A stretch of DNA of 64,000 nt from Phoronis australis (Eukaryota; Animalia; Phoronida), in contig NMRA01000218.1 in assembly GCA_002633005.1 (NCBI GenBank), positions 391,113 through 455,112 on the forward strand. Direction: 5' to 3'. Position numbers and translations under genes: made by a program. The notes beneath the pieces are model-generated. The model was not told the DNA's origin. It did no database searches and saw only the letters and a list, made by a program, of their open reading frames with translations. This document shows positions 4,213-64,000 of the stretch, piece after piece (position 1 is the stretch's first letter; every line of letters begins with the position of its first letter).

Positions 4213-4410
4213 AGAAGTAGTAATAGTAGCAACGGTAGCAGCAGCAGTAGCATCATCATCATCAGCAGCAGCGGCGACGGCAGCGGCGGAAGCAGCAGCA
4301 GCAGCAGTAGCGCAACAGTAACAGCAGTATCAGCAGCAGTAGTACAAGTAGTAGCATTAGCGATAGTACCAGTAGCAGTAGGAGTAGCAGCACCGCAACC
4401 ACCACCACAA

Positions 4411-4471
<61 letters not shown>

Positions 4472-4595
4472 CAACAGTAGTAGTAGTCGTAGTAGTAGTA
4501 GTAGAAGAAGTAGCAGTAGCAGTAGCAGTGACAGCGGCAGCGGCAGTGGCAGCGGCAGCGGCAGCGGCAGCGGCAGTGGCAGTGGCAGTAGTAAT
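4213..4595. repeat. Compound trinucleotide microsatellite (GCA/GTA/CCA/TCA/GCG)
   Basis: Directly visible; produces spurious homopolymer ORFs. Confidence 0.95.
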
Positions 4596-26521: not shown

Positions 26522-27097
26522 TTATAAATCTGCTGTAGCAGCATTATCTAGGTTCTGCAGTATGTAAGTTAAGTGTTCATTGGCTATTGTGTTGAGATCT
26601 CGCGATATGCCCATTAAGATTTGGAAGTTTTCCCTCTTCGTCAACACTCCTGTTGGTGATGCTAATATGTCTGCCAGAGATTTTTGAACTTGACTGATCT
26701 TGGTGAATAAGTCAACATCCAATGGCATTGGAACCAGTTTACACAACTCCGTGAAGTGAGACAGCCAGTTATAATAACCTTGGCTGGCAAAATCAGGATT
26801 TGTGATGTAGTCCACACCAGGCGGCGCTGTGTCCTGTGGTCTGATGGCTGTGGCATTGCCCTGAACAGTTTGCTCTGCTGAAACACTATCCTCGTTGTAT
26901 CCGTTCTGTTTCCCAACATGACTGGCTATATCATGGCTTGTGATTACGGTGCCGCCTTCATCGTATTCAATAATGTGGTACTCTATTTCAACCGATGGAT
27001 CCATCCTTGTGCCTGATTGGTCAGACGCTTCTGCCACAACAGCACTAGCGACCTCTTCTGGGATACCCATCTCCATGGACTCCTCCACATTATTCAC
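26522..27097 (-). CDS. ZF gene terminal exon (acidic linker + helical C-terminal domain)
   Basis: ORF 26522..27106; acceptor ttttggttaag|; AATAAA ~95 nt downstream of the stop. Confidence 0.85.
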   Translation of the reverse strand: MNNVEESMEMGIPEEVASAVVAEASDQSGTRMDPSVEIEYHIIEYDEGGTVITSHDIASHVGKQNGYNEDSVSAEQTVQGNATAIRPQDTAPPGVDYITNPDFASQGYYNWLSHFTELCKLVPMPLDVDLFTKISQVQKSLADILASPTGVLTKRENFQILMGISRDLNTIANEHLTYILQNLDNAATADL

Positions 27098-30000
27098 CTT
27101 AACCAAAAATGAAAGGTATTAAAGAATACTAAGGACCATCTTTCTCCTTAAGTTTGAAGGATGGGCATCAAAGTCACAGGTTCTTGAAATCTGGGACCCT
27201 GTAAGTGCCTGTTGCCCAAACTTCTGCTAACCTGTCACAAAACAGTCAGTGAAATTTCAATGTTTTTGTTTCACACAAGCAAATACAACATGTCTGCAGA
27301 TTCTGACACGGATAGTGTGATCTGTAGTATAAGCTCTGGCAAAAATAATTACCTTACCATGGAATTGTGGGTATTATGACACATGGTCATGCCTAAGAAA
27401 CTCAAAACGTTGATTTTCTAGATTTCAGCAATTAACCAAACATTTCAGGTTTTAATATTTGAAAGCATGTCCCATGACAACTAAAAGGAAGTAGACAACT
27501 TTAACTGTGCAAAAAATAAGTAAGATTTCAATCACCCAAATGTTTTAAACAGTTTTATTTAGTCTAGATTCACAGTGGAAATGACCAAAAGATCCATGGA
27601 TGTCTGAACCAAGTACATGAACCCAACTGATTCAACAAATGCAGACTTTTCCAACAACATTTAAGGACTCTTGCAGTGTATCATATTGCCAACAAAACCC
27701 TCAAGGGTGGACTATGGACTACAACACTATCTGTGTCAATAGTTAAGTGGTTGAAGGGTCGGCCATGTTGGAGCATGACTTTCCTAAACAATCCGGCCAA
27801 ATCCACCAGGGCTTACAAACTGCCATATTGACAAGATCCAGTAAGACAGCAAACATTTAGCACTGGAAGATGTTACCAGATTCGTCAGAAGCATAAAAAA
27901 TCAGTTTAGAAAAGGCTTTTATACAAAAAAATTCACCCACAAATAGTTTTTTTCTTATAATAAAAAATTCAGCATGAATCAACGAGGTTATCTTGGCTTG
28001 GCATTCTTCCGCACATGATGACCAAATATGTAAGAAAATAACAAACTACAATTATGAACAGAACTTTTTCACAAGTACGAAACTTCGACTTGGAATTTTT
28101 TTTCTGGCAGAATGAATGCATGGGTGGTTAGTCTGAGCAATGAGTGATTTTGTTCTCGGTGCATTTCAATAATTACAGTGACATAAGTCAACCTTGTTTT
28201 TTCCGATTTTGCTCTCATGAGAATCTGTAATTATGTGAGACACTAGCAGAGCATTACAAAACGTGGATCATCATTTTAAGGAATATTCAAGCTGCCAACT
28301 ATTCATTACACAAATGTGTCCATGTATTAAGAGTGCAACCAGTTACCACATTGTCTGGTTATTTTATAAAATGCCCCAAGCGTCCAGCTTCAGCTGCATG
28401 GACAGTATTGGAATGAGCCCGTGGTTACAAAAACCAATTTCACATTGAGCACATTTTGAAACATATGTATGTACTTTGTACTCTCATATTTTTACATTAT
28501 AATTAAACCTTACGGCCCTAAAATCTACACAAGGGGGATACATAATGACTTAGAATTTAATCTAGTATTAAAATATCCAATGGCAAATTCAAACAAACAG
28601 ACAAATAAAAGTACACTGTCTGTATTGCTGATGCAAGACAACAACGCCATCTTGTGAAAACCAAGCTAGACTGAAAGCAATATGATCAGTTCAGACTTCA
28701 GAATTGAAAATGAGTGCATTGGGGCTTTAAAACAGCTGTGCATCTGTGTTCTCTGTTAAAAAACAACCACTGACCTACACGAACGACCCTTTAATTGTAT
28801 CAAATTGGTGTCAACACGATCTTTTTCTCAGAAGTGATGTCTGGTCTCAGTAGGTGGAACAGAAAGTTAATAACATCATGATGGATCTGCTGAGACTCAA
28901 GTTGTCAAGGGAGTTTGACACAGTTAGTCAAAATTAATAAAAAACAGACATGGTTTCAAACATTTGAGTAGACATTTCACTTCAAACAACAGATTATTTA
29001 GTTTGAAAATGTTGATTTGGTGTTAAGTTGGGGCTTGATAGTAGCACAAGTTATCACATTTTATAATGACGTCAAACTAAACAATAGGCAAACTCGAGTA
29101 CAGCCAATAAGTATGGCTTAATTCAAATGGAGTTACAGAAGAAACATCACATCTTAGACTCTTCCCATAAACTATGCTTATGTGCAAATTAAGCGAGGCA
29201 AGAAATTACCACAAAGTGGCCTTGTGTGAAAGAGGTGAGGAACAAAATATGTTTTTCAAATAAATTTGGGTTTGCGAAATGAGCTGAGTGCACTGAATAA
29301 GTGGGAAATTACTGTATCTCTCACAAAAAACAAATGCCTCTGGAATAGCTCATTTTACCTCTTCGGCAGAATTGTCACCAGAGGTCTCTTCAAAAACTTG
29401 CTGAACACCATCCCTATTAGTTGACTGCTCTTCAATTCCTGTGGTAACGAATTTTGATTGGTCGGCATATCCAGGAGTCTGTGACAACTGGAGCATTGTG
29501 TTGACCACACTTTGTTGGTCACCAGTAACCTACAAAGAATGACATGCCCATAAATTCATCAGCAAAATACACTAAAGGGATGAGCACCAAGACCAAATAA
29601 AATGTTCAATTGTGAGTCTGTAAGTTCTTCTTTACAGACAGGTGACATGTCTACAGTCAGATGATAGAAGACCAGTACCATGTGGAGTTTATTGATTTCA
29701 GAACTCCACCTATCTCTATTAATCAACTGAAGGAAATTAACAATTTTTGCCAAAACTATTTTGCAATTTCTAGCTCAGAATTTTTATGGTTTCATGATCA
29801 TTCAATAAAAACCTTATCTGATAGCATAAGAAAGATAACCAGCTGCTTGAAAACAGCTGTCAAGAGTCTCCATGGTCTATGATATGATGGTAACGAATAT
29901 TTCGTCATCCCATACAGTCATATGAAACAATTTATACTGCTGTCAAGTAACCTTTCATATCAGTCATGCACGCTTATTTCAGTAACTATGTAATTTATAT

Positions 30001-33000
30001 GAAGCTGGTGCATTCGCCATGCCAGCCTACATTAGTGACATCTTTTGGCTATAGCTCATTAGCTTGTAACAAGCCTGCATCCCACTAAACATGATCAATC
30101 ACAAAAACAAGAACATGACAGTAACAGTAAAACTCCATAAGTTAGATCCAACAAGACCAAGACATTTCACATTAAGAGTAAAATTCTGCTCATCTGAAGG
30201 GCTGAGTGCATAACACTTTTGGCCCACTTTATGCATCCTGTAAGCCGGTAGAGTTCAATGGACACAACCTGATCATTTTCAGGTCAAAGAGTATTCAAGA
30301 GTACCTGCGTCACATAAATGTCAGCTTACTGTTTTTTGTAATTGTTTCTTCTGTAAGCAATTTTACCATCCATATGGAAATTTGTGTGTGACGGAAGTAC
30401 TGAAAAGTAAGACACGAAGCACTGTGTTGACAACTGAACTACCACAAGACTGTATTTTAGTCTTCATTGGACAGGTGTGTCTTAACTGTGTCATGACCAA
30501 TGAGTCAGGAGTTAAGTCATTGAGGACATTCAATAATTGTTGTGCTGGTTGTAACAAAAAGTTGAAACACAGTGCTGTTGATCAGTGAGAGTCAAGAGAT
30601 TAGTGACAAGCGCTTTCAAGTAGAACCCTCCAGCAGTAATGGGTTTTGTCCAGTGTTCTTACAGGCACAGCTTCCATAGTGAGTCAGTGATGCGTTTAAT
30701 TAGCTGACAAGCCAGGGTGAAAATAACTTTCCAATGAATAGCGCAATGGTTGGGTTTTTGTTGACAAAATGACCAATTTTGAAAAATCAAAAACTCTTTA
30801 ACATTACGGCGTTTTCCCGTTGATCCCAACTTGTTCGATTCTATAGCCCAACAACAAATTGGAAAGATGACCCCTGTAGCCAATATCTTACATGACTGAT
30901 TAACTCCATTCTGCCATTTATGGTACAACTGACAATCTATTCTTTCCGAAAGTACCGATTTTTTCTGGGTTTGACTGTGTTCACAAGTCGTCTGTAATAA
31001 TCCTGGTAGATAATTGGTCTGCTTGTTGTCATACCAGACAAAAGACTGTGCTTGGCAGTTAACAAAGGAGCTAGATGTTATGACAAGCTGACAACCCTCT
31101 GTCTGGTAACATCACTGAATGGGAAAACGCCGTCATGAGTATATAGTCCAATTTTTACTCTTATATTCAGATTTTTTGGGTTCAATTGTTTTCATGACCC
31201 CAAAAGATAATGGAAAAACAGTTGCTTTCAAACTTCGTCCTAGACCTTTTCGCAATGCCTCCCACCAAAGACTTAGCAGGTGCTCGTGGACTGTCGCTGC
31301 TGTTAACGCAACCATGGGTCTCATCGGCGAACACATGATCGCGCAAAATGCTGCTTGGCTGCCAGTACAAGAACTTGGTGAGGAACAGAACGTCATCATT
31401 GCTTTCAACAGGGAAGCTCGGGAATGGCCTCCTGGAGTAGCCCAAGCATTGTGCCGTCAGCAATGGCGTGATCTTGGCGGTATTAATGCCATCATTGTAG
31501 CAACTGATGGATCCTTCGACGGTGAAACTAATCGTGCGGGATGGGGTTATCAAATACGCTGTGCTAACAACGTCATTGCAGAAGGTAGTGGCTGCCACCA
31601 TGTATACACAAGCAGTACGCGGATGGAGTTTGAGGCTATACAACGTGCCATAACCAAGCTGTCACTCCTAGACCTGGGGAATCACACCATTATCTTTGCC
31701 ACCGATTCCATGGCAGTGTTGATGAACGCTCAATCTGGAAACCTCCCAGCCAACTGGGGTGTCTTCCGATCAAGCCACCCTCATCATGTAGTGATCTGGT
31801 CTTTCAAACCTGGCCACGCCAGTGTCTTGATTAATGAGCGTGCAGATTACCTCGCTGGTTCTTGCACCACCTACCAACCCCTCTACTTATATTCGGCTGA
31901 CGTTAAGCTGCTGGCCCGCAAATGCAACCTCGAGGAGACTGCATCCCAACTGGCTGAGTTCAATGATGGCAGCCAACTGCTCGAAGCCGGTATTATTTAT
32001 GGCCATGCTGTGAAGAGTCACAAGAAGAGCCGTGCCCGAGTGCTGTCAAATCAAATGCTTGCAGGCAACGTCAGCCCTGGAGTTCTGCGCCTTCTGCTGT
32101 CACGGGGATGGTCTGGGGAGGGGAATAATGCACCAGCATATCCCCAATGATCCTGTCCATGACAGGTATTACAGGTATTGCTTTCAAACCTTATAGTTAG
32201 ATGTGATCTGATAAGAAACCACAATTACCCTCACTATGTGAGTCACTCTTTTGGTTATTAGCCCCCTAGTGGGAATGGAATGTGGATAGAACAGGTTGGG
32301 CTGACCAATGAGCTATAGCTCATTGGGCTGACACAGAACAATGAAAAATTTCAAAATATTTCTCCAAATGGAGCCTCATCTCATTTAAAGGAAATGTTTA
32401 CAACATGAAAAACATGGACACAAGTTGAACGAACAATGTGAATTTCTGATCAATAATTCCCACATTTTCTCGTAGTTGTGCGGAAATTTGACAGTCAGAA
32501 CTTAAAGGTACAGCATTATTAAAGAATTAAAAGATCACTAGGGACAGACTCTAAGTACGTGCTAACCTTGTCAGCCTGCATGAGCTGGTATACCTGCCCA
32601 GGTTTCTGCAGTTCTAGACTAATCTTCTTCTGTAGTTCCAAAGCTTTCTCACCAACGTGTACAGGAGCTTGTGTCAAAGCATCACGCAATGTTACAATGT
32701 GGCTACCCCCTGTAAAAATGGATAAATAGACGCTGTCATTTTCAAAATGTTGCTTTCACTAATGTTCGGATATTATCACAAACAGGAGGACGTGACGTAG
32801 CCAACAGCAACAAGTATGCAGACATGCTTGCGAAAGTGAAACTTAAGTAAGGTCACCTAAAATAATGCAGAAAAATCAGGAACCCCAACTGGGAATCGAT
32901 CCACAGGTCTCTAGAATGCCGGTCTAGTGCTCTCACCACTGAGCTACTGAGGAGCCGATATCTGTGCAATTACTGTTTACAGCCAACTGTTAAGTCATAC

Positions 33001-36000
33001 ATCCCATGAGCGGCATTTCGCCTTTTTCACACGGGATTTGCACTAGGCCGGCAATCTAGAGACCTAGATTCCCAGTTGGGGTTCCTAATTTTTCTGTGTT
33101 TATTTGAAAAATTTCATTATTGGCCAACCTCAGCTACATCCAATGTTTTTCCCGTGGGAAAATGAGAAGAGTCAGTGTGGTCAAATCTTAAGTTGTCACA
33201 ACCACAACCAACACAACTCCTCACCAGTCTTTATTATACAATAAAGAATAATAAATAGAAGAAACAAGCGGCAAGATCTGACAACTTTTCACACAAAACA
33301 CAACAGAGGATTGTCATTGGTGGTCAAGATTCTACGAAGTATTAATCAACCAATAAACGTTGGTAATGGTCTGCTATAATGTGCCCAAATTTTGAGACAG
33401 TTTTCCCCACTAAATAACGGGCATCAAACTGGTTCTCAAAATGCGGGCACGTTATATCAGACTATTGCCTAAATGTTAATAACTTGAGACGAGCTAATTA
33501 AGATATCGCCAGATAGTGTTTGAAGGTTTTCTAATTTCGCAGCTAATCAGCTGATGGGGTTGTGTTTGGTGTTTTTTTCATAATAATGGATTTGGTGGTT
33601 TAAAGCACTTTAAGTATTCACCTTTAAACCAGATACACTGTAAGTCATGGAGTAATAAAATGAATACAGGCAAAGCAAAAAGACCAAGTAATTTGCAGAA
33701 GTGGCTCAAATTATGTCAAAGAAACTAATTTTTTTATTTCCACCAATATTATTGTCAAAAACGTATTCCTCACTCAGGGGTGTTTTGGTCTTAAAAAGAA
33801 CTCTAAGTTCTCATAGTGCTCAACGAATAAAGTGAAACGCAGTGATGACTAATCAAATTGTACAGATATATCTTAAGGAATTACAGGCCATCTTAATTCT
33901 TTCTGTCTTCGAATAACAAACAATTTGAGACCAACTTCTATGGTAAGTGGTCGTTCAATCTAAATTGATTTTTATCATGAAAGGCTCGTTTATAGATCCT
34001 GTGCCTCGTATCAAAAACCAAGCATCGATTTAGGAGTGAGTGGTATCAAATCAGACTCATTTTCTACATTATTCAGAATATCATTAGTCCACAGGCATAG
34101 AAACATGTGCGATATGTTTATGGTATTGGTGCATCTAAAAACTGCTGTGAACATGGGGTCTCAAAAAGGATGGGCCTGTAGCAAATACTACTTCTGCTAT
34201 GTTGTTAATCTGACACTGGTACAAATGGTTTCATTGCCTCACAAGCTCTATTTAGTTTTCTTATAGCCGGTCAGTGGAATACACAGTATGACCATCAGGG
34301 AATAGTCAAGGCAATGCATTTATCTTCAATTCAAAAAAAGGATAAGAACCCCGATTGCCTTGCTTTGGAAGAGCAAATATGTCACTAGAGGCAAAGTTTC
34401 AACACTAGGTTATCAATTTATAAACCGCTTTCAAGTTCCAACTGGTACTTTTCAGTGGCCACCAATTCATAACTACAGTGTCTGAAGTACACAGCACTCG
34501 TCTTTAGACAGGAATTGAAAATTTTAAATCCACCAAAGGCATCCACAAGCCCAGTAAATTATATTACACTGTCCTGGTGACCGAGAGAGTGGTCACCTTT
34601 GGTTGTATTTGACAAAAATTACTATGTGCAATTGATTGCAAAAGTAGCAAGCTGGATTCACAGACAGGATTAACTGTTACACGCACATTGAAACAAGATT
34701 ATTTCGCAGAGCACACTGAGGTGCCAGATGTCCATCATTCACATTATGGCAGCAGCTTTTATCACAAACACAGCACTTGCCTTTAAACGTAAACTGAAGG
34801 GCATTGCCACCTTTGGCAAATCTCACATCATCTCCGAGACTGGTGTGTTTCCTATATAGATGAGCCTTGAGCTGACCCGCACGTTTGAAGTTATCTTCAC
34901 ATAACTGACACGAGTATGGTTTGACACCTACATGCTCCTTCATGTGGCGCCGCCTACTGGAGGGGTCGCTAAATCGAGCTCCACATGTATCACATGTGTA
35001 TGGCTTCTCACCTGTGCAGGATGCAGAGGAGGCAAAGGAGTTAATCATCGGTGACATGCGGTCATGTTCTCACTTGACCAACAACAAATACTTTTCGGTT
35101 TAAAATTGAGACAATTTTCAAATGATTTCAGATAAAAAAGACCAGACTTCCATCTCTGACAAGCAGAATTTGCACTGCATTAGAGTAAATTTGTCATTGA
35201 ATCATTGAATCAATCTGGGTGCACCATGGCATGAAACAACTGATCATTTTGCCGTTGATCGCAACCTACATGTATGCTTGCATGTATGATATTACACTTC
35301 ACTTCAATAAGTGATTTATCAAGACTGTAAAAGTCACAACTAAAGCTGCTATTCCCAGCTCCACACAAAAGGGAGTTAGATCGGTGTTCACGATAAGGTG
35401 AATTGACAACCCCAGCAGCTAGTGTACAAATCTATTAACCAAGTACAAGATGGCATGAGTACTAACAGGCTGAGTTTCCCCAGGAGGTGTTTCATACATC
35501 AGCGCATGGGAAATATTGTGACTTTCAAAATGAAGAATGATATTGAAGTTTGGACACGCGCAAATATGAAACACCTTCAAAGGTTTGAGGCTTCAAAAAT
35601 ACAGAGTTCCAGATGCAATGGACTGCAACTTCGCTTCAAAAACGCTAACAATTTTGCGATTAACATTTAAAAACGCGAACATTCATATTCTTAAAAAATT
35701 ATGCCCTAAAATGTATGCCTAATGTTGGTAAATCCGTAACAGTTTGTAGCCCGAGACTGGCCATTCATTACCTGTTGTTTCTGCTGTACGCAGAATTAAG
35801 CATTCTGATGAGGAAAACAGTACTTCATCTATTGTGGCATTTACACTTCTACAAGAGACACTTACGAGTATGAACTGTCTTATGACGTACAAGATCTGAT
35901 CCATGAGCGAAGGCCTTGTTACAAATAGTGCAGACGAATGGCTTTTCACCTGACAACAAAGAAGTGCGGTTAGACACATTACAGACTGGCACAAAATAAA

Positions 36001-39000
36001 AAAACAACAAGAATAATGCAGCAAAGTGGTGACAAGTTCACGCCATAACGTACATGTACATTTCACAAATCTGAGTTGTGTAACAACAAAAAATGTCGCC
36101 CAATTGAAGTTTGACTACAAACTTCTTCACCTACATGTAATTTCGAAAAAATATCCAAGACCTTTCATCAAAAAAGCGACAGACATGCTTCGTCAAAAAT
36201 GAAAATTCTCAACTGAGGAGCAACAGTATTGCCAGTCTGTCCAAAAAGAATCTGGTGCTGGTGCATCCTGGTTTCATAACACGGTACCGCTGTCAAACAT
36301 TTTTCGAGAAATTTGATCGACAAGCAAAAGTAACAAATTGACGGGCATTGAATTTCTCATCAAAAAGTTAAAAAACAGGGGATCCACGGCAGACAAACTC
36401 ATCTGAAAATTGGCTGGTGAATTTCCCCAATGTCACATAGTAAGCTGGGTCAGCTGGACTGGTTCTAATCACATTTCACTCTTAAAAGGGGGCCTGTTAT
36501 CAACAGAGTGACTCACTAGGCCACATAGTGAGGGTACAGTTTTTTACCACATTATATCTAAATAAAAGGATTGAAAGCATTCATTTTCTTTTTTTGTATA
36601 TGGACACCAATGGAAACTAAAAATCTGAATGGAGGAGTAAAAACTAGACTACCTAAGTATGTGGGTTCTTGAATTTTCAAAACTGGCCAAGAAACAGCGA
36701 TTTTGTCAACAAAAACCCAACTGTATCACTAATTCACAATAGAAACTGTGCCTGATAGAAGGTGCATAAAAACTGTCCTGGTCTAATGTTCTTCATTAAA
36801 GGGAAATATCAATGTTTCAGTTACTAGGTGCATAAAAGTCCTTTAATTCTAACGTCGGCGCATCAATGTTTTGGGGACTTGTGGTTGGTGTGAACAGTTA
36901 GCTTAGGTCCTGGATAAAAGCTAATGGCACTAATTATTATAATCTCCATCGATATAAATTGAAAAATTACCTGTATGCACTTTCTGGTGAGATTTCAGGT
37001 AGGACTGCTGTGAGAACATCCTGCCACAAGTGTCACATGAGAAGGGTGTGTCTGACGAATGAGTCACCAGATGTTTAGTTAGTGCGCTCAGCTGGCGGAA
37101 TTTCTTCCCGCATACTCCACACGGGTGAGGTCGGAGGTTCTGGTGGATCAGCAAGTGTTCCTTCAGTGACACGCTCGTCGCCAACTTCTGGTTACACTCT
37201 GGGCACTCGTACATTTTGATGCCTGATAATGCGGTGAGAGAAAGACTATCAGAGTTGTGAAACACTTCATGATCTCCAATCACATCATGCTCTTGTTTTC
37301 CATATTACTCATATATATATTATTCATTTTCCACAAGTTTATATATTTTACATAAATAATTTGAGTTTACTGATGCAGTAGGGTATGCACAGCAAATTGA
37401 TTAGTGTTTACATTTTCAAATTCCAAGTCAGACTTTTCCATGGATGAGAATAATTGATGTCATTTGCAGGTTTTCCATTGTAAACAAGTAAGAGGGGACC
37501 TGCGAGTGTTTTTGGTATAGTCACAGGACTTGATATATGGTCAGACATGGTAAACAAATAAGAGGGAACCAGTGAGTATTTTTGGTACAGTCACAGGACT
37601 TGATATATGGTCAGACATGGTAAACAAGTAAGAGGGAACCAGTGAGTGTTTTTGGTAGCCAAAGGACTTGATATCTGGTCCGACATTTCATACCTTAGCC
37701 CTAGGCACAGATCAAGGTACACTGTACGTGCCAGAAGCATTTCTATCTATGTGCCACAGTGACAATATTTTTCAATATCTTGAGTGTGTGTATTGAATGT
37801 CTTTCACTTTTTAAATTAATAGCTGATGTAAATTCCCTAACAGAAATTTAACAATAAACAAAATAACTCCCATACATTCTGGTGTATAGTACAAGATACC
37901 ATCACCACAAAAAGCTTCTGGCAGATTAGGGAAAACCCAGAAATGTCAAAAAACAGTTCATTTATGAAAATTTATAGCATGAGAAAACACTGGATAGAGC
38001 AAGTTGAATAGTTGACATAGCACCTGAGTGTAGAATTTGAACACATTGCTGAAACTTTGCCTTCATGACTGGCTGCAGTGGGGCCCAAGTCTAGTAGAAC
38101 TGGGACAGTCGTTTTACAGCCAGTCTTTTGACACAGCCGGCTCCTTTAAATGGGCGACTGTGTTCTGGATTTTACATATAGTATTGTCTTGTGTTACCAC
38201 ATGTGGGTTTTGATTTAGTTGATGCATTCCATTATACATGTCTAAAATGATAGCCAACACTCCAGTGATTGGTAAAAAGGGATAGAAAGACACAAAATCC
38301 TGGTTACCACCCAAAATGTGGCCTTTGCGCTAGTGAACAGGCTTTGAGCACCCGCAAAGTTCTACCAAGCAAAATGTCCAGCCTAGTGGACTTTGCAATG
38401 AGGTGTTTCGTGCAATGGGCCCCAACCACGTGGCCTACCCACGTCTGATGCACCACAAGACACCAAACCGCCTGCACTCTTCTATAATTTTAAATGGGTA
38501 GCTTTCTTGCTGACTTTGAGCATGTGAACGGCATTTGAACTCTGGAAAATATTTACTATTAAAAATGCACAGCATTGTGGATAATGAATGCGTTAATGGC
38601 GTTTGAAGTCAGAACACGCTCTATGAACTAAAAGGACTCTGGGTTTGTGGATCTTGAATATCTGAATGGGATTTGAGCTGTGAAATTATACAGCTCTAAC
38701 CTCTAAAATGTTAAGATTTGTGGACCTTGAGCAGGTGAACGGCATTTCAGATGAGAAACTACAGCCGCTATACCTACCAAAGTGTCCAGCTTTGTGGACC
38801 TTTAACATATTGTTGCTCCTGTATGCCTTAGTACAGCCAGCGATGTCACACTTGTATGGTCTCTCATTGCTATGAATCAACATGTGCGCTTTCAAATTTC
38901 CTGGAGTGAAGGACAAACTCAATCTAGTTTTCTGTGACTACATAGTAGACTAGTTTTCAATATTACAGTGTTTTCATGAAGATTGACTGCACTAGGAACA

Positions 39001-49400: not shown

Positions 49401-50522
49401 GGGGCTCGGGAGCCGAATGCACAATGCATAGGCCTTGAACAAACCCAGTTTACGTTTTTTTTGAAATAGGGTCGCCAACCCAAAAATTGGAGAACCCTGC
49501 ATCCTTGCATTTTAGGCGTGCGCGTGTGCCGAAATTCTGGTATTTCCTGTGCCCTGACCCTCCCCCTTCCTCAGAATATACATGTATCATATTTTGTTCT
49601 ATTAGGTGTTGCCCAGGTATTAGAGCATTAATTCAGCAACATGTGTTTGTGCTCTCAGTGTATCTGCAGAAAGATTGCAAGATAGCTTTTGTGGAAGATG
49701 AAGGCCCGATGCTAAATGGGAGAAAACCACTGACGTAACGAAATGCAATGTTTGTCTGGGATTTTTTTGATTCCGTTTCCACACGGAAAACAATGTTGGC
49801 CTTCTTTCTTGAAAACTGTTACTGCGTTGTGATCATGCAATGACCCCATGGTTTCAGCCCAACGGGGCGCATATAAGAGAAATTAAAACGCTTGTCAAGG
49901 TAACGTGGAAATTACAGTGTTCGAGTTAAGATCCTTGGCAAAATGAGTTAGGTAGTGCACACAGTTAGTATTGCAAAATTCTGGCAATATATACTGGCTG
50001 GAGTGAAAATAAAATGAACCCTGTAACTTACAGGGCGCGATGAATAAGATAGGTGCAGCAGATTTCAACATAAGCTTCAGTACACACACTTGGAAAACTT
50101 GGAAAAAGAACTTGCCAAAATAGTTTGTCAGTTTAGTCCACGAACTCTTGTCGCAATAAATGATAAACTTTTGTCGAAGTTGTGAGCGAATATAGAACGA
50201 CTTTATTGCTCTTACTGCTAATTGTGTTTTTTTTTTCTGCAATGGACTTGCGATTTCGACAACTATTGGATGGAATAACTTTTGCCCGAGGTTCTGTAGT
50301 GAATTAGAATTTGTTGTCGAAAACTAATTATGTTTATTCACGGTTACGCGTCGTTTCAGTCTGTTCAGTTCATTTTGAAACTATTGTATGCAATATGTGA
50401 ATGTCAAATTCTTGAAAAAATCCACAAACACTGTAATTTTGTTTATTATTTTGCAGGGAATTAGTAAATAGTACTTCCGTAACCACAAAAGTGAACAACA
50501 ACGATCATTTCTCCCAAAACAC

Positions 50523-50766
50523 TCAACAGTAGATGGTGTCTTTTACCCCGTTCATGTTGACTTGATCGAAGTACACGTTGGTCATATCTCGAAACTGTCT
50601 TCTGGCGTACGAAAGACCAACAATTCCGCTGTCTGGGTCTTTGTCGTTGTAGTAAACCTTCCAATACCCGACGTAAATGTCGATTTTGCTGTTTAATTCT
50701 GCGAAAGACTTAATCATGTCTGTGCAGCTCTTGCAAGGAGACAGTTTTGTAAACAGGTGGACCTTT
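50523..50766 (-). CDS. Deaminase coding exon 2 (SPCKSC motif to stop)
   Basis: Extends ORF 50523..50717 upstream by 16 codons (KVHLFTKLSPCKSCTD) to a polypyrimidine-cag acceptor, in phase with exon 1. Confidence 0.88.
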
Positions 50767-53700
50767 CTGAAAACGAAGAAACAGTTTCTCTTATATTATG
50801 AGATTAGAAAAGCAAGAGGCTAACGGAAAGAAGGAAGAAGAAAGCCAAGAAGAGAAAGAGAATAGTGTAGGTTGACAGAGATGGAAGGGGAAGCGGGAAA
50901 AAGAGTCATCCATGAGAAGGGATGCAAAGGACGGAACAACATGAGGTACACTGAAACGGGTAGCAGTAGGGTGGATGTGATTGGTAAGGCGAGCATCATC
51001 TTTGCCGCAGGGAGCAGAAAACACCGTGACCGGTCGTGCAGTCGCCACCAACCTCCCCGCCTTCTGCTGTACATATACATGTACGTCGGCATTGAGCTGA
51101 AAAGAAGTACAGGTCAAGCAAGTGAGATATCTACGTCCTCATTAGTACTCTTGATTGACTTTGCCGGTAATACCAGGTAAACAGGCTAAAATCCAGTTTG
51201 GAGTAATACAATACGGTATCTCTCCAAGTCTGCTGCTTAATTCGTTTTTAATAAGTTGTGCGGGGAGACCACGACGTTTTCATACATTTTCGACTCATTT
51301 CATCGGTAAAAGACCCACCTGCAAACTGTTGCTACTACTTAGGCCTACGTATTGTTTTAAAACTCCCTCGACCCCCACACCCCGGCCCCCTCAACCCACA
51401 GCCCACGACTCACAACCATGCACCTCGACCCAGGACCTACACTATAGCAATAGATGTATCTTTGCGGTTTTTACACATTTCATAATCATATTAATTCGCT
51501 GAATGACTTTCCACGAGACATACCTGCACGCGAGTCTGTTCTGGGTCAAGGCTGGTGGTCATTAAAAGCAGAATGTGGCGTGACAATCCTGTTACCAATG
51601 ACCCTGTTCTACATATGTACAATTTTAGTTCAAGAAAACAACAACGGTTTAAGACTTGACATGTTTCGGTGTCATTTATTCAACACCATCATCCTCAGGA
51701 GTGATGGCCACCTAGCTACTTGTAGGCCCACCAACAAGTAATGAAGCACAGGTACAGTCAGTTACAAGGAGTGACAATGAACAAGACCAAATGAATGACA
51801 ACCTGTGGTGTGTCAGTTGCCTATTGAGATTGGGCTTGCACAGGCCAACTGATGTCTAAAGCCTCACGAATTTTAAGCTCCTTTGTTGTTACTGCCTGGT
51901 CTATTAAGGTGGCACTGAATAGTTAGGCTGCGGCCGCGGCCAAGTTGCACTGACAAAATATTGAAATTTTTGGGTTGTCCAAGTTTGGGGACATTTTGTA
52001 GGTGGGCATTGTATGTAGGCTCAGTGAATGGGGTTTGTTTGCATTTGTGAACATGCTGAGAATGAAAAGGCCACTTTCTCGGTTGTAGCTGCACTCTTCT
52101 TCAAGATGGCGGCCCCCGGTTGCAATTGTGCATTGCTGAGTAGCGACTGAGAAACTGGCTGCGATTTTAGGTAACCCTCAAACAAGCCAGAATTGCCAAA
52201 AAACTAGTTGGTTGACAGTACTTTTGGACCACATTTTCGGAATCTGTAGGATATTTGCTTTCAGAATCTATTGTTGGTTAGTCGTGCATCGTCAGAGAAG
52301 TGGTGTTTTCGGGGTGCAAAAAGTGCCAATTTTGCACTGTTTTGCCCCTATTTTTCTTAGTCTAGCTTGGTTTTCAGTGCAGTGGCGGATCTACAGGGGG
52401 GTTCAGGGGGATTAAAACCCCCCCTCGGGCCAGGACCCAAAGTTAGAAAAAACAAAAAAGTCTCCAGCAAAACAAAAACGGCATCGCCAGCGTGTGTAAA
52501 CCCCAAGAAACCCAACTTGGAAAAAATGAGGGGGGGGGGTTCACTATGAAAGTAATTCTTTTTTGGAATGTGAATTGCTGTTATGAAAATCAACGCGTTT
52601 CGAGTCTTCGTGACTCGTCGGCAAAACCCGGGAGATCAATTGTTCGCGCGCTTCCGACGACACTTCTGAAGTAGCCAAGCATTTTAGATGGACCCACCGC
52701 TGAAAGAGCAGCTATATAGCTGATTTCTTTAGGTAACTAGTTTCTTTACTCTAAGATATGTTGTGATTTGATTAGGGGAAACACTGTGGTGCCGCAACCC
52801 TGATATTCACGTGCAACCTTTTTTACTTCATCTGTCAAGCCGTGTCTTCCTCTTACACCCAACACGTTTGTAACTCGAATTTGACTGATGTATAGTAAAG
52901 TTGTCTTGCGCAATATCATACAGTGCACATGTACAGTGTACATGTAATACTTGAAAAAAATCGTTTTCCGAAGAATTGCAATTGTGGCCTGCGCCGTGGT
53001 CTGGTCGCGACTCTGTTTGAAGACGCACTCTAACAAGTTATGTCTATACAAGGAATGACCAAGGACACTTCTACCTGCAATAAGCACCACTGCCGTTTTC
53101 TATACTGAGAATTTCCGCAGAAAGGCCCACCCGAAGAAACTCCCATGCCCATGGGCATTTATTTGATGTTAGTACCTCGGGTTTCAAGCGTTCAGACATT
53201 GGGACGTTTATTTCGAAAATTGCAAGAGATGCAAATGGGTCCTGGGATACATCGTCAAGGTTTGAAGTAGTCCATGATGAACGGATCGAATTTACATGTA
53301 GTTGCACATGCTGCGAGTCTTTTGAATGTTACTTGGTTATCTCAGGGGGCTTAGTGCCAACTGAGCTGCGACACGAAATGCTGACAATGTAGAGGCGTAC
53401 AAGCTCATTGACACAGCAGTTGACGAAGTGCAAGCGTTGGGAACAAACGTCGAAGATGTCTGGGTAGAATGGTTCCAAGAGCAGCAAACCATTGGATCCC
53501 ATGTACAGATTCCTCGGCAGTCTAGACAACAGAAAGATAGGACCAACGTTCCCGGAGAAACACCCAGGTAATAAGTGATAATTATACACAGTTTGTAATA
53601 ATGTCGTTTTTTATGCTTGTGTACAATGAAAACGAAATAGAAATTATTTTTGGACATGTCAAATTTACCCAGTACAGCAGAGGGTCTACGAGCGCACAGA

Positions 53701-55861
53701 AACTCATTCTGGTTTGTATTTCCACTTGAGTCTATCTGCTTCATATTCAAAATCTTATTTCACGTAGTGCGTAGTTAAATATGTACTCAATACTTGTTTC
53801 TTCCAGTGAGTACTACAAAACGGTGCGAAAACCCTTCCTAGACATCCTCTCGCAGCAGTTGACCACCAGATGTGTGAACTACACGTATGAGCATCCACTG
53901 GGGATTAAAAAGTGTCTAGAGAGTTATTCAATTTTTTTTGCAAAGTACGCTTTAGGTCTCGCGACGGACCAGGCCAGCTTAATTTATGTAGATATCGAGT
54001 TTCAGTGATCTACTGGTCCCTCGGCGAACTAGTTTTGTGATGTTTTTCACCAAAGTGTGCTTTGTAAAACTATCTCAGCCAGTACTGTTTGGTCCCGCGA
54101 CAGATCGACTACTTTAATAGGGATAATAAGCACAGGTGTACTTTTGGTCTCGTGACGGACCAGGCCAGAGTTTTTGTGTACTCTCAGTGCATATCTGGTC
54201 CCTCTGCGAACTGCTCTTGTACATGTATATCTTTTCACCACGGTGTAGGCCTACAGAGTGTTTTGGTTTCGCGAAACTGTTTTCAGATGATTTGTTTCCT
54301 GATACATTGACGTTTTTCAATTGTAGTCAACGTGACTCAGCTTAATAAAGTGATACTTAATTGTCTTTGTCGCTTTTAATAATAGACTATGAGCTGAGAG
54401 CACCATCGTTCGCCAGTTTTTCTCGTAACGAGACAGAACACAAGTTTATTTCCGGACTGACAGTACAGGTCTTCGTTCTTAAACAACTCGATGCTGCTGT
54501 TACGCGATCATCTGATATTCAAGTTTTTACGCCCTGTCGGTGCTCCTTATGCTCTTGAATATTTGAAAGTTGTCTAAACCCCTGTGTACACACCACACTT
54601 TTTCGTATGCTAAAAAGGTGCGTGTAAACAGATGTTCTAATTAGAATTTTTGCTGGTGGTGTGACTCATACCCAAATGTGTGCACAAATATGATTTCACG
54701 AAACTTATGAGCCAAGTTCATGTGACGAAATCGAGAAGTGTTTTTAATTATCTTAAGAAAAACTCCAGGGACATGTTAAGTACGATAAACGTACCAGGAT
54801 GCATGGAAATTTCACTGTTCGGCTACAAAAACAAAAAGTTGTCTTACACGGGAGGGGGTTTGCCCCCTCCCGACCTCCCCCCCGCTCGGCGCCACGCGCC
54901 TCGGATTCGACCTTTGCGGGAATCCTAACCCCCCCCCCCTTACTGAAAAGGTAGATCCGCCACTGCAGTGGGATTGAAAGGGTCAAGAATACAAGAGAGA
55001 ATAAAGTTTCTGCGCCCATCTGCAGGGCTTTTTATGTGAAATAAGTGAAAACATGTTATTCTTTGCAACCTGTTTTTGACAGAGTGAAGAAAAGGTGACA
55101 AATCAAGTGATGTGGGTTTTGCTGGGCAAAACCCAGTGAGAACTGTTCTTTGCCTCCTTAATTAGAATTGCAAGACTGCGAAATTACGCGAGATACCGCC
55201 GTGTATTTTAAATGATTTTGGCTCACCTAAATTTTCTCGGAGCGAGATGTAAATTGAACTCTACTCAGTAAATTCTTTATTGATTTAATCCTGGTCGACA
55301 AAGTTTGGTGCCATAGATACATGGCCAGGCTTAAGTCTTAATTAAATCTGGTTTTATTAAACCACTTTGATAAAATCAACTGCCTGGTAGAGTCGTGGAG
55401 TATCACCTACTGCAACCAATTAATCTTTTAATTTAGAAATGTTGACAAATTTGCTTCCACAATGTAAAATGTGCATGTAAAATCAATGTAATACATGTAA
55501 CTTACCTGACCGTTTCACCGTAATCGTGCATTAGTTCTGGAAGCTGAGAAAAGATTTGCTTTTCGGCGTGGGAAGTTGGGTTAAATTGTCGAATTCGAGC
55601 CCAATAATTCATGGTCGGTTTAGGATGGAGCATGGAGAACATCAAGTCCATGTCGTAACAAGGATTTATTTTATTATAGTTGCCTGCACCTGCCTTGTTT
55701 AGCGTCAAGACAGCAAACTGCTTGTCCCGGTTTTCTTTGTAGGTGAAAAAGTGACCCAGTCCATTGAGATACTCTTCGTCGAATGTACTCAAGTCAATGT
55801 ATCCTTTAACCTCAACTAGGGTGCCGAGAATAACAAGAGCGAAAATAGCACGGGTAAGCAT
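50523..55861 (-). CDS. Secreted AID/APOBEC-like zinc-dependent cytidine deaminase (SNAD-like), 199 aa, 2 coding exons: join(55506..55861, 50523..50766)
   Basis: Exon A: hydrophobic leader MLTRAIFALVILGTLVEVKG, then QFAVL, NYWAR and SHAEKQ; donor AG|gtaag at 55506/55505. Exon B: acceptor ttttcag| at 50767; phase-2 join gives AGA then KVHLFTKLSPCKSC...IYVGYWKVYY...TIYC*. HxE + SPCxxC is the deaminase zinc-binding signature. AATAAA at 50447..50442. Confidence 0.88.
51650..51875 (-). mobile_element. Penelope-like element 3' fragment (GIY-YIG tail + hammerhead-like motif)
   Basis: KIREALDI (51874..51851) followed by CTGAGGA...ggtgtt-loop-gacacc-GAAAcatgtc (51700..51658). Confidence 0.65.
53330..53875 (+). 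pseudogene. hAT transposase relic with a GT-AG intron (53568..53806)
   Basis: In-frame stop; the PRxxxxQxxRxNxP..EYY...PFLD motif is restored only by removing the intron. Confidence 0.7.
53950..54275. repeat. ~190-bp duplicated unit inside the hAT element
   Basis: ggtctcg(c/t)gacggaccaggccag...ctggtccctc..cgaact...ttttcacca near 53955 and 54145. Confidence 0.7.
55506..55861 (-). CDS. Deaminase coding exon 1 (signal peptide + HAE motif)
   Basis: ORF 55502..55861; acceptor tttgtttcag|G-ATG immediately upstream implies an unlocated 5' UTR exon; gtaag donor at 55505. Confidence 0.88.
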
Positions 55862-57059
55862 CCTGAAACAAATAAAGACGGGACATCAACTGTCGATGTA
55901 CCGACAAAATGTTCACAGCAGAAAAAAAATATCGTGTACCAACAAGTAAGCTAAATGCGTACATGTATTTATTGAAAAGCCTGCCACGGTACGCCGACCA
56001 ACAGCAGTGCACATTATTTGAAGTGATCTTCAAAATACGAGTTCATTAAGCAAGGATATCAATCAAGACGACTGAATGATACCCTCTGACACAGCGCCAC
56101 CTAAACTGAAAAGTGGCCCTGTGGAGACATGATGAACTACACACGATTTCCGTGTCTGGGCATCAATGCGCATGCTTGGTCAGAAGTTTACCTTTTACAA
56201 CGCCACCACGAGCACACACCTTCTATGCACTGAGCTAATTTGGGCTTAAGCCACTGGATCAGGGTTTCCTTGGTTTTGTTTAATTCGTTTTAATAAATTA
56301 CAGTTACATGTACAGTCAAATGTGGTCGTCATACTACGTAACAGGAAACTGAAAGGGTTTATCCAGATTTCAACCAATGGGAATGACTGGATCTTGGGAC
56401 ACCGGTTTCATTACTAAGTTAACCAAGCCATGTTAAACAGCATTTCATAGTGCTACCTTTTGCAGCCCTGTGAAATTATGTAAGTTAGTAAAGAACAACC
56501 ATGCTACATTACTAGACCCGCATCACTAAAACCCCACGAGACCATCGTGTGAATTGAGGAGGGGTTGTTAACTCCCCGGGTATATGGGCAGTCCAGTGTT
56601 CTACGCCGCATTGAAGCCACAGACATTGCGATGCATATCTCAGAAGGTAGCATCTGCATTATCCCACCACGTTTATTGCTTCGAATGCTGGGAAGAAAGT
56701 TCGACAAACTCTTCACGATTGGCGATTTTTGTTCTTTAAAACTTCAAGTTATCAGGCAGAATGTCGACTTACTTCTAGAACTCACTGTCACTGCGTTGCT
56801 TTTTGAAATCTATAGGCCCTGCATGTATATATCTGCAGGTATTATTGAGGTAGCTGAACGTTAACACCGTGGAGAACGCATTGTCGGGTGTAAGGGTTCA
56901 TGAAATGTTGCTATAGCAACGGGATTGCTCATGAGAGCGAAATCTCAAGAGTGCATGGCCTCGATTGAGCTTATCGCACTGCAATCACTGTGACATATGT
57001 AACCCGAAACGAAAAAAAGCTTTTAGCTAAGACTAATTTATGCATTGACGTGCATAGAA

Positions 57060-62782: not shown

Positions 62783-64000
62783 GCTGTAACGATAACCACC
62801 ACGGCGACGCCTCTTCAGCAGATCTCATCACTGACTGCATCAAATTCTTCCTTGACACTGTGCTGATACTTAGGAACATCATCGACCTCCACATGCTGCT
62901 CCCGATGAAACCTCTGCATCCTACTTCGACTGGCATACAAAAACACTTTCGGTGTTGCTGACTTCCTTCCTTCTTTCTAGATCCAAAATATGCGCAATCA
63001 CCTTGAGAATCTTGTCATGTCTTCACTGTATTTGCCTTCTGCCAAAGCCGACTTACAGGATGACAAAACGTGCTGTAAAGTGCAGCGCTCCCCACAACTG
63101 CTGCAAGAATCGTCTTTCCCCATAACTTCAGGTTTGTCGGACTAGGGAGTACGTCATACACAGAACGCAGGATAAAACTTAATCTGTACTGGTCACATGA
63201 AATCAGGTCGTTTGCTATAATGCTGTCCAGGCGCCCTGCTTTCTCAAACCAACAGCATGAGAATAGCGCTTCTCCTCTTCCTGATGACGTACTTAGTCTA
63301 ACACCATAGAATGACGCTCTTGCCCTCTAGTTGTTTTCCACCAGTCTTAAACGGTTTCATGCCAAAGCCTTCACGTTCTCTAGAAACTGCCCCTACTAAA
63401 TTTTTATGGTGAAGCCTGCTCTCTGCTGATCCTACTTCCTCCTCTGGACTCCACTTCCTTCCCGCAAAAACGTCAATCTTTACATCACTGATATCATCAT
63501 CTTTCGAGTCCCTCAGAGTCAGGAAAGTCCTGCACTTAACGACTTAAAACTCTTCCACAATTATAGATCGTGTAGGTAGGTTTACTGCTGAAGACCTCAT
63601 GTACAGGCCCAACCTGGTGAAACTTGGCGGTATGCCTAACCACTTATTGCGCAACCAGCGGCTAACCAAGCGCTCCATCCTCTCCACTGCTGTAATAGGT
63701 AGATCGTACACTGTCAAAGGCCACATGGCCTTTGGGAATAGACCAAACTGGTAACACCACACCTTAAAGCGGCCAGGTAGTCCACACTTATCGATCTTCT
63801 GAAGATTTTCCTGTAAACTTTTTAGCGCTGCTTTTACATGGTCTCCATCCTTCAATGTGCTGTCATACTCTTTCCCCAGGTACTTCACTGACTTGTCAGA
63901 CACCGAAGGTATCACATCTTCATCCACCTTAAAAGCGAAATGTGGGTTAATCTTCCCTCGAACCAACACTAAACTCCTTGATTTTGCTACTTTGAACGCC
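62783..64000 (-). mobile_element. HERO-clade (RLE-type) non-LTR retrotransposon, degenerate, runs off the window
   Basis: RT end/thumb VKYLG...GLPGRFKVWCYQFGLFP..WPL...WLG; GRKW; CCHC knuckle CSSCGERCTLQHVLSSC; RHD; PVEVGCRGF; AEEAS; frameshifts and stops. Confidence 0.85.

Follow-up and report, generated by a model that had tools for sequence, protein, structure and literature searches.

The window analysed here, 64,000 nucleotides of contig NMRA01000218.1 of the phoronid Phoronis australis, carries on its minus strand an expressed and very divergent gene whose coding exons lie on either side of a long intron, and whose product is probably a secreted AID/APOBEC-like deaminase. Its features are as follows.

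55506..55862, minus strand: exon with the start codon (ATG at 55861-55859), coding for residues 1-118 and two bases of codon 119
55802..55861, minus strand: codons 1-20, predicted signal peptide, from a rule-based n/h/c layout and hydrophobicity
55562..55570, minus strand: H-A-E, codons 98-100, predicted zinc ligand His and catalytic Glu
50767..55505, minus strand: intron of 4739 nt, phase 2, GT..AG, with repeat and transposon-like DNA inside
50523..50766, minus strand: last coding exon, with the third base of codon 119, residues 120-199 and the stop TGA at 50525-50523
50724..50738, minus strand: P-C-K-S-C, codons 129-133, predicted zinc-binding cysteines C130 and C133
50442..50447, minus strand: AATAAA, candidate poly(A) signal, 76 nt past the stop codon

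The earlier note had proposed that splicing from 55506 to 50766 yields an open frame of 199 amino acids, and both the sequence and the transcripts bear this out. Exons 55861-55506 and 50766-50523 of the minus strand together form a frame of 600 nt (199 aa), with a donor gtc ag/gtaagt, in which 55506 is the last exon base, and an acceptor ttttcag/A, in which 50766 is the first base of the last exon. We used three stranded RNA-seq runs (X2, X3, and X4) that bear the same species label as the DNA. Reads across the joint, which the earlier note had named as a check, were found in all three, numbering 51, 30, and 139 with 33, 25, and 45 distinct starts, respectively. The joint skips 4739 nt and reads CT..AC on the plus strand, and the first mate lies on the plus strand in all joint reads, which under the usual stranded library means minus-strand RNA. 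In addition, 68, 36, and 179 reads, at 90% likeness, run past 55506 with an unaligned end that matches the beginning of the next exon. Exon depth was 55-222, against 0-0.4 in the intron bins adjoining the acceptor (50903-51304); sense-strand depth was 46-325 across the length of exon 1, and the intron beside the donor had no sense reads in the three runs (bin 55480-55497, depth 0). The last coding exon had a depth of 55-79 (bin 50501-50701), and sense-strand depth drops to about 3 around the candidate poly(A) signal (bin 50300-50500). Expression was substantial, at 60, 45, and 185 reads per kb per million records read. The gene is transcribed from the minus strand and spliced exactly at 55506/50766. 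Since either half by itself is no more than a short ORF and exon 1 matched nothing in the databases, one could suppose that two short open frames resembling deaminase motifs lie there by chance and form no gene at all; this is so improbable as to be negligible, being refuted by the 220 reads that cross the joint at precisely the predicted sites in the three runs and by strand-specific, exon-confined coverage.

In one respect the initial gene model was wrong. It had two exons, but all reads reaching the 5' end depart from the reference at 55867 into a further non-coding exon, which is short, is spliced just ahead of the ATG, and has a sequence absent from the window. Because the leader consensus from these reads (at most 18 nt) contains no ATG, AUG 55861, with A at -3, is the first AUG seen. 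The exon with the start codon likely begins at 55862, behind an acceptor tttgtttcag, and sense depth was zero in all seven bins from 55876 to 56000 in all three runs. That the gene belongs to an invertebrate is supported by the neighboring gene, whose four named relatives are all lophotrochozoan.

The predicted active site is divided by the intron as had been described, with HAE in exon 1 and PCKSC in exon 2; an intron that splits an active site is ordinary in eukaryotic genes. In the spliced translation, 28 residues lie between E100 and P129, a gap that satisfies the spacing rule HxE-x25-30-PCx2-4C of the zinc-dependent cytidine-deaminase superfamily, as quoted in the available part of PMC11004436. 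By a rough estimate, an HxE would occur at a fitting distance by chance in about 1 in 100 cases. The 199-aa protein contains only four cysteines, at positions 68, 130, 133, and 199, so that C68 and C199 are indeed the sole cysteines besides the PCKSC pair.

The hydrophobic leader of about 20 residues reported earlier is also present and, by rule-based analysis, is of the n/h/c type, consisting of an n-region MLTR, a 12-residue hydrophobic core AIFALVILGTLV, and a c-region EVKG, with a predicted cut between G20 and Y21 (V at -3, G at -1). The second expressed haplotype has V18I, K19R, and G20A and still keeps the -3/-1 rule. The 11-residue windows of highest hydrophobicity all begin within residues 1-8. 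The N-terminus could instead escape cleavage and act as a signal anchor, or serve to retain the protein in the ER, leaving the enzyme bound to the membrane or unreleased in the ER or vesicle lumen, and 6 of 38 fish SNAD1 proteins are predicted to be N-terminally membrane-anchored (available part of PMC11004436). We consider this improbable here: the hydrophobic core is just 12 residues long, the c-region retains V or I at -3 and G or A at -1 in both haplotypes, the hydrophobicity scan found no second hydrophobic segment, and the translated protein has no KDEL-type C-terminus.

Profile searches with exon 2 alone (80 aa) pointed to the AID/APOBEC group. The Pfam families matched were APOBEC2 (E 8.7e-6, 26.3 bits, cut-off 26.8), SNAD4 (E 1.1e-5, 25.9 bits, cut-off 27; profile positions 55-123 of 130), NAD1 (E 3.6e-5, 24.4 bits, cut-off 27), and APOBEC_N (E 1.8e-4, 22 bits, cut-off 25), as well as AID, NAD2, APOBEC4, APOBEC3, and APOBEC1. 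Ten AAD families gave E<1 with alignments of about 70 residues, and no Pfam family reached its gathering score with this half of a domain. The E-value for dCMP_cyt_deam_1 was only 0.19, compared with 1e-5 to 1e-3 for the AAD families. The best PDB sequence match of exon 2 was APOBEC3G (8h0i and others; E 1.2e-3 over 61 residues), in an alignment that covers strand 3, SPCxxC, helix 3, and strand 4, places Y156 on the loop-7 Tyr, and pairs PCKSC with SPCFSC and IDIYVGYWKVYY with VSLCIKTARIYD of APOBEC3G. Three features of AADs are present: SPC precedes the zinc helix (KLSPCKSC), strand 4 is hydrophobic, and loop 7 holds an aromatic residue, Tyr. Together, the Pfam E-values and the APOBEC3G alignment support the AID/APOBEC-like kinship claimed in the earlier note, and the similarity is to these enzymes rather than to nucleotide deaminases. 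Exon 1 matched no Pfam family at E<=10 and no PDB sequence. Models of the two half-domains were of low confidence (pLDDT 50.8 and 43.7), and the order E-H-E-E-H-E in the exon 2 model would, at that confidence, fit strand 3-helix 3-strand 4-helix 4-strand 5. The Pfam alignments end at profile positions 142-144 of 170-175, corresponding to residues 69-72 of the 80 in exon 2. Because the protein ends 8-11 residues later, helices 5 and 6 of classical APOBECs appear to be missing.

Among 1.84 billion representative proteins, exon 2 had a single match with E<=0.001; this protein is bacterial and toxin-like, is 6849 aa long, and carries three deaminase repeats at its C-terminus. Word-index searches found no relatives. 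AID/APOBEC enzymes are thought to have descended from bacterial polymorphic-toxin deaminases, and the product might be a secreted deaminase-fold effector like these and not an antiviral mutator, namely a toxin- or venom-like protein used against the cells of competitors, prey, or microbes, or else an enzyme with free nucleotides or some other molecule as its substrate. The sole library match is consistent with such an effector, as are the Pfam Toxin-deaminase match of exon 2 (BURPS668_1122 family, E 1.7e-4), the minimal domain without helices 5 and 6, and the language-model clusters nearest to exon 2, which are bacterial toxin-deaminase fragments (0.82-0.80, a lead only). We nevertheless judge it unlikely, because the toxin matches span about 33-55 residues at PCxxC, whereas the AID/APOBEC profiles align over about 70 with better E-values, because language-model atlas scores are too low to exceed leads, and because the gene has spliceosomal introns and lies within animal DNA. 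With exon 1 alone, the three nearest language-model clusters were of SNAD1/SNAD2 (0.85-0.83), likewise a lead only.

In the three RNA-seq runs, the expressed haplotypes differ from the reference at 19 sites. The frame is open in at least two expressed haplotypes, as it is in 42% of random sets of 19 substitutions, and no stop was seen in them, nor is any indel listed in exon 1. None of the 19 sites falls on H98, E100, P129, C130, C133, or C199, codons 98-100 as a whole showed no variant in the three runs, and C68 has a synonymous change only. Twelve of the 19 sites change the protein, with a pN/pS of 0.44 that is not significantly below 1 (binomial p = 0.075). This, together with the absent C-terminal helices and the failure of library and word-index searches to detect relatives, would also suit a lineage-specific gene that is transcribed but decaying or catalytically idle, such as one for a protein that binds nucleic acid, or a young duplicate being lost. 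We give this little credence, since every expressed haplotype retains all zinc and catalytic residues with no indel or stop seen, splicing is clean, expression is 45-185 reads per kb per million, and AID/APOBEC-like genes normally show fast protein change (available part of PMC5889660).

Taking these results together, the explanation that we favor, with moderate confidence, is that the expressed gene encodes an AID/APOBEC-like deaminase, which likely serves in defense as a polynucleotide cytosine deaminase that is secreted or lies in the lumen of vesicles. Judging from the sequence, zinc would be held by H98, C130, and C133, and E100 would shuttle the proton as cytosine in single-stranded DNA or RNA is hydrolytically deaminated. 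Entry into the ER would be directed by residues 1-20, and cutting after G20 would leave a mature enzyme of 179 residues, a minimal core that would end just past strand 5 and lack the helices 5 and 6 of classical APOBECs. C68 and C199 would remain available for a disulfide, and the enzyme, either released or kept in vesicles, may have foreign nucleic acid as its target.

A more far-reaching reading, which we offer tentatively as possible, is that protostomes have here their first secreted AID/APOBEC-type mutator, a 179-residue minimal enzyme of its own lineage, with export kept from bacterial toxin ancestors or regained, which takes part in an arms race and acts on pathogen nucleic acids outside the cell or in vesicles. 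The arms race is suggested by replacements that cluster at residues 61-66 and by co-expressed haplotypes that diverge by 5%. We found no description in the open-access literature of an AID/APOBEC-like deaminase with a signal peptide in lophotrochozoans. If the reading is true, the known range of secreted AID/APOBEC-like deaminases would extend to protostomes through a strongly expressed lophotrochozoan member, and a small, cysteine-poor enzyme (179 residues when mature) would allow tests of secretion and substrate choice. Divergence nearly hides the gene from profile and homology searches, so similar invertebrate genes are probably under-counted.

According to the available parts of PMC5889660 and PMC11004436, secreted AID/APOBEC-like deaminases are known from vertebrates (SNAD1-3), sponges (SNAD4), and dictyosteliid slime moulds, and their targets and activity are unknown; in the latter source, catalytic activity is reported for none of them. 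We judged clade membership against the signatures in Table S1 of PMC5889660, which, in its available part, gives a signal peptide only for SNAD1, 2, and 4 and the dictyosteliid clade. Membership in the SNAD clades was not supported by this comparison: the protein shows none of the signatures listed there for SNAD1-4, nor those of the lophotrochozoan AID/APOBEC clades. Like SNAD4 (PF18750), the protein has a signal peptide, here a predicted one, followed by a single short deaminase domain, a Cx2C zinc motif, and acidic residues after strand 4 (here NDKDPD). The SNAD4 signatures given in that source are a loop-7 Trp in place of Tyr, a Trp ending strand 5, a charged residue before CxnC, and occurrence in sponges only, whereas the present protein, from a lophotrochozoan, has Y156 at the canonical loop-7 Tyr, no Trp after W153 and so none ending strand 5, and P directly before CxxC. 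With SNAD1 and SNAD2 of poikilothermic vertebrates (PF18744 and PF18745) it shares a predicted signal peptide, the absence of helices 5 and 6, and a cysteine, here C68, that lies after the likely strand 1 and before the HAE helix. However, neither exon matched Pfam SNAD1 or SNAD2 at E<=10. The same part of PMC5889660 lists for these clades a helix between strands 2 and 3 and a C---CxxC---C cluster on strands 5-7; this cluster is absent from the present protein, which has four cysteines in all and is too short to accommodate strands 6 and 7.

The Lop-Ech-Cni and Lop-Ech-Zn2 clades (Krishnan et al. 2018) and SpAIDL/LaAIDL (Liu et al. 2018, PMC5956068) come from the same broad animal group and share the HxE...SPCxxC core with a loop-7 Tyr and high polymorphism. 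They differ in that signal peptides are not described for these lophotrochozoan and echinoderm clades in the available parts of the sources, and the terms 'signal peptide' and 'secreted' do not occur in PMC5956068. The Lop-Ech-Cni signature in the available part of PMC5889660 includes WP before strand 1, whereas the present protein has no WP dipeptide anywhere, and KLS-PC instead of NYS before CxnC. GLGH (residues 34-37) resembles the GLH motif listed there for Lop-Ech-Zn2, but that clade has SC and C/H ligands in a long loop 7 and DW in helix 5, whereas loop 7 here (NDKDPDSG) contains no Cys or His, and WP, DW, and helix 5 are missing. Classical AADs (AID, APOBEC1-3, NAD1/2) have helices 5 and 6 after strand 5, which are apparently absent here; APOBEC3G in particular is cytosolic with both helices, and the N-terminal half of the present protein has no detectable similarity to it. 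The protein resembles bacterial polymorphic-toxin deaminases (PF14424; P0003) as a minimal deaminase domain that is exported, here by prediction, and in that PCxSC and the following helix and strand align, although the PF14424 match scored 22.2 bits against a cut-off of 29.6 and is limited to residues 2-34 of exon 2. Those bacterial domains are C-terminal modules, whereas the gene described here is a stand-alone, intron-bearing animal gene with a predicted eukaryotic signal peptide.

We read the minus strand of the window directly between 50400 and 56000 for signals of the deaminase gene and found the following by sequence reading:

55861, minus strand: start codon ATG
55506, minus strand: last exon base before the splice donor, gtc ag/gtaagt
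50766, minus strand: first exon base after the splice acceptor, ttcgttttcag/A, which follows a pyrimidine run
50525-50523, minus strand: stop codon TGA ending the second open stretch

The two coding exons translate to 118 and 80 residues when taken separately, and when joined by script in the window's own letters they give 356 + 244 = 600 nt, or 199 codons. HAE occupies residues 98-100 and PCKSC residues 129-133 of the product, its only cysteines are at 68, 130, 133, and 199, and every one of its highest-hydrophobicity windows begins within residues 1-8. The 199-residue open frame, both motifs, the hydrophobic leader, and the cysteines described in the earlier note are all present in the sequence.

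RNA-seq reads from three stranded 2026 runs under the same species label (X2, X3, and X4) and one small older run (X1) were mapped to 50300-56300 at 95% likeness. The splice from 55506 to 50766, proposed beforehand from sequence alone, was found as the exact joint in all three stranded runs, with 51, 30, and 139 spanning reads (33, 25, and 45 distinct start places) in X2, X3, and X4, respectively. The joint skips 4739 nt and reads CT..AC on the plus strand, that is, GT..AG on the minus strand; in all of these reads the first mate lies on the plus strand, which indicates minus-strand RNA, given the usual stranded library. Depth was 55-222 in the exon bins and 0-0.4 in the intron bins adjoining the acceptor (50903-51304). 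The remaining intron had sparse coverage on both strands by reads 95-99% alike, as dispersed repeats would give, and X1 (share 0.07) mapped to intron repeats only, with no exon covered. In a finer mapping of 55480-56000 at 90% likeness, a loose end at 55506 made up of the first bases of the last exon was found on 68, 36, and 179 reads, and the first intron bin (55480-55497) had a sense depth of 0, which together indicate that splicing is essentially complete. A minor joint, 50766/55694, was rejected as noise, as it had 3 reads in one of the three runs, GC..AG borders, and by our own sequence reading a frame shift. The deaminase gene is real, and its model is right in the coding part.

The intron also contains an element of about 2.6 kb (52375-54970) with 20-nt inverted repeats at 52375-52394 and 54951-54970 (95% complementary), both arms of which are flanked by G/C runs. 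It is covered at low depth on both strands by reads 95-99% alike and resembles an inserted DNA transposon of the TIR type. An antisense RNA, spliced and of low abundance, runs on the plus strand over 52167-55857, with a GT..AG joint 52167->55740 seen in 6 reads of X2, 2 of X3, and 0 of X4; its depth is 4-7 over 55740-55857, where it overlaps the first coding exon.

At least two forms of the deaminase gene are expressed, according to the RNA-seq reads. Mapping at 90% likeness gave 17 variable sites in the first coding exon, and the last coding exon has at least two fixed differences from the reference. A linked set of changes was carried by about 50% of the reads in X2, 29% in X3, and about 90% in X4, and divergence between the co-expressed haplotypes amounts to about 5% of sites within a single exon (55516-55829). 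The reference states 55681 T and 55806 T were almost absent from sense-strand reads. The two haplotypes may be alleles or recent paralogues; within the window, a tblastn search for paralogues with the joined product matched only its own two exons. Among the 19 sites listed, 12 are protein-changing and 7 silent, and residues 61-66 hold a cluster of four replacements. These data bear on the rival view that the gene is idle. On one side, pN/pS is 0.44 over the 19 sites listed, not significantly below 1 (p = 0.075). On the other, no indel in exon 1 occurs among the variants listed, none of the 19 sites listed falls on H98, E100, P129, C130, C133, or C199, C68 is altered only synonymously, and expression is roughly 60, 45, and 185 reads per kb per million records read.

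The gene had been described as having two exons, a count that must be revised, for read loose ends at 55867 indicate a further short non-coding 5' exon. At 90% likeness, reads turned into a loose end at this position in 31, 10, and 63 cases (24 and 50 reads at 95% likeness), and depth was zero in all seven bins of 55876-56000 in all three runs. The loose ends have a median length of 8-14 nt and a printed consensus of at most 18 letters, for which the window gave 0 matches even when 3 mismatches were allowed. The reference acceptor, tttatttgtttcag/G at 55863/55862, is of textbook type, and the five-base TTCAG that separates it from 55867 can be common to the intron end and to a ...CAG-type exon end. 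Because of this canonical acceptor and the five shareable bases, we take the leader to come from a short first exon that is non-coding, lies beyond the window, and is spliced to 55862. A non-canonical acceptor at 55868 was considered and dropped in favor of the canonical cag/G at 55863/55862 with a chance-shared TTCAG. The window extends 8.1 kb upstream of the gene; since the leader is absent from these 8 kb, either the first exon lies further away or the reference is structurally different from the sequenced animals. The leader consensus from X2 (95% likeness, where the reference-like haplotype prevails) was not the same as that from X4 (where the other haplotype makes up about 90%). A leader that differs by haplotype is more easily explained by a linked exon than by trans-splicing, and spliced-leader trans-splicing was set aside for that reason. 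With the short first exon, the exon count of the deaminase gene rises to at least three. No ATG occurs in the leader, which makes the AUG at 55861, with an A at -3, the first one seen.

Spliceosomal introns occur in the window, along with remnants of retroelements and a gene of the C2H2 zinc-finger type. These features were located:

26525-27118, 34680-35069, and 36933-37304, minus strand: exons of the C2H2 zinc-finger gene
31119-32147, plus strand: retroelement remnant, an open frame of 343 codons that encodes an RNase H domain (E 3.4e-8)
63547-63999, minus strand: retroelement remains, an open frame at the window end with no Pfam match
32881-32953, minus strand: tRNA by Rfam (48.7 bits), not reported by ARAGORN
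4168-4689, both strands: long open frames of Ala/Val/Ser/Thr runs

Searching with a 198-residue exon of the zinc-finger gene gave 11 relatives, 4 of them named: one brachiopod sequence at 70% identity, two snail entries at 66%, and one nemertean sequence at 56%; those of the brachiopod and snail carry the name ZBTB24-like. By these relatives the window most likely comes from a lophotrochozoan animal, and not from a sponge or a vertebrate. The tRNA-like match at 32881-32953 was the single result of the Rfam search, lies away from the deaminase gene, and may be a tRNA-derived repeat. The open frames at 4168-4689 are low-complexity GC-rich repeat DNA.

Exon 2 alone matched ten AID/APOBEC Pfam families in alignments spanning about 70 of its 80 residues: APOBEC2 (8.7e-6; 26.3 bits against a cut-off of 26.8), SNAD4 (1.1e-5), NAD1 (3.6e-5), APOBEC_N (1.8e-4), and further AID, NAD2, APOBEC4, APOBEC3, and others. 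Its top sequence matches among solved structures were APOBEC3G and APOBEC3F. In the alignment with APOBEC3G, VHLFTKLSPCKSC...IDIYVGYWKVYY lies opposite VTCFTSWSPCFSC...VSLCIKTARIYD, a stretch running from strand 3 through the zinc helix to strand 4, with Y156 at the position of the tyrosine in loop 7. The profile alignments end at positions 142-144 of 170-175 with 8-11 residues remaining, which suggests that helices 5 and 6 of classical APOBECs are missing from the predicted product. An NCBIfam search gave nothing meaningful.

These searches also bear on the rival that the product is a toxin-like deaminase or acts on another substrate. The bacterial Toxin-deaminase family matched exon 2 at 1.7e-4, in the motif region only, and the nucleotide-deaminase family dCMP_cyt_deam_1 at only 0.19. 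The nearest protein-atlas clusters of exon 2 were short bacterial toxin-deaminase fragments (0.82-0.80, leads only). Exon 2 was also run exhaustively with HMMER against 1.84 billion representative proteins. A single entry reached E<=0.001: a toxin-like bacterial protein of 6849 residues, in which the alignments link three C-terminal repeats to residues 118-172 only. A word-index search of a 5.8-billion protein collection gave 0 matches for exon 1 (near lengths) and exon 2 (longer lengths).

Exon 1 had no Pfam and no PDB sequence match. Our claim that it encodes the N-terminal half rests on the proven in-frame splice to exon 2, on the canonical gap of 28 residues between HAE and PC (expected by chance about once in 100 by our own estimate), and on the protein atlas, where the three clusters closest to it are SNAD1/SNAD2 (0.85-0.83), scores below evidence level and a lead only. 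AlphaFold2 single-sequence models of the halves were of low confidence (pLDDT 50.8 and 43.7), and a Foldseek search of the PDB with the low-confidence exon 2 model gave 166 matches, none of which reached E<=0.001; the best 50 included no deaminase, a result that carries no meaning for a model of such low confidence. Assignment to an AID/APOBEC-like family is probable, and the product is very divergent.

The zinc-deaminase motif is present in the sequence, and the steps beyond it we infer. Zinc would be held by H98, C130, and C133, and E100 would activate water for deamination of cytosine in a polynucleotide. The 20-residue leader would direct the protein into the secretory pathway, and the mature 179-residue enzyme might work extracellularly or in vesicles on foreign nucleic acid, the target role proposed for SNADs, the secreted AID/APOBEC-like deaminases. 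Secretion is plausible as a prediction; a membrane-retained form is the rival reading of the same hydrophobic leader, to be weighed against V18I, K19R, and G20A, changes after which positions -3 and -1 of the predicted signal cleavage site still hold small or aliphatic residues.

Metazoan AID/APOBEC-like deaminases split into classical and secreted (SNAD) clades (Krishnan et al. 2018, PMC5889660). In the portions of that paper available to us, SNAD1-3 are vertebrate-only and SNAD4 sponge-only, more secreted forms occur in dictyosteliids, and Table S1 gives a signal peptide for SNAD1, SNAD2, SNAD4, and the dictyosteliid clade only. In the open-access literature we found no secreted lophotrochozoan AID/APOBEC-like deaminase, and the available text of Liu et al. 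2018 (PMC5956068) does not mention signal peptides for the sea-urchin and Lingula enzymes. Against the clade signatures in Table S1 (PMC5889660), the product matches no clade's own set, and four of its short motifs had no look-alike in the available supplement. Of the Lop-Ech-Cni signature, both NYS and WP are missing; of Lop-Ech-Zn2, the second zinc site, WP, and DW are all missing, although GLGH at 34-37 is reminiscent of its GLH. The cysteine cluster of SNAD1/2 is absent, as are the signature-position tryptophans of SNAD4, and the product retains the canonical Tyr. By the Table S1 signatures the product is no SNAD4 member, yet its predicted layout, a leader followed by a minimal domain, is SNAD4-type.
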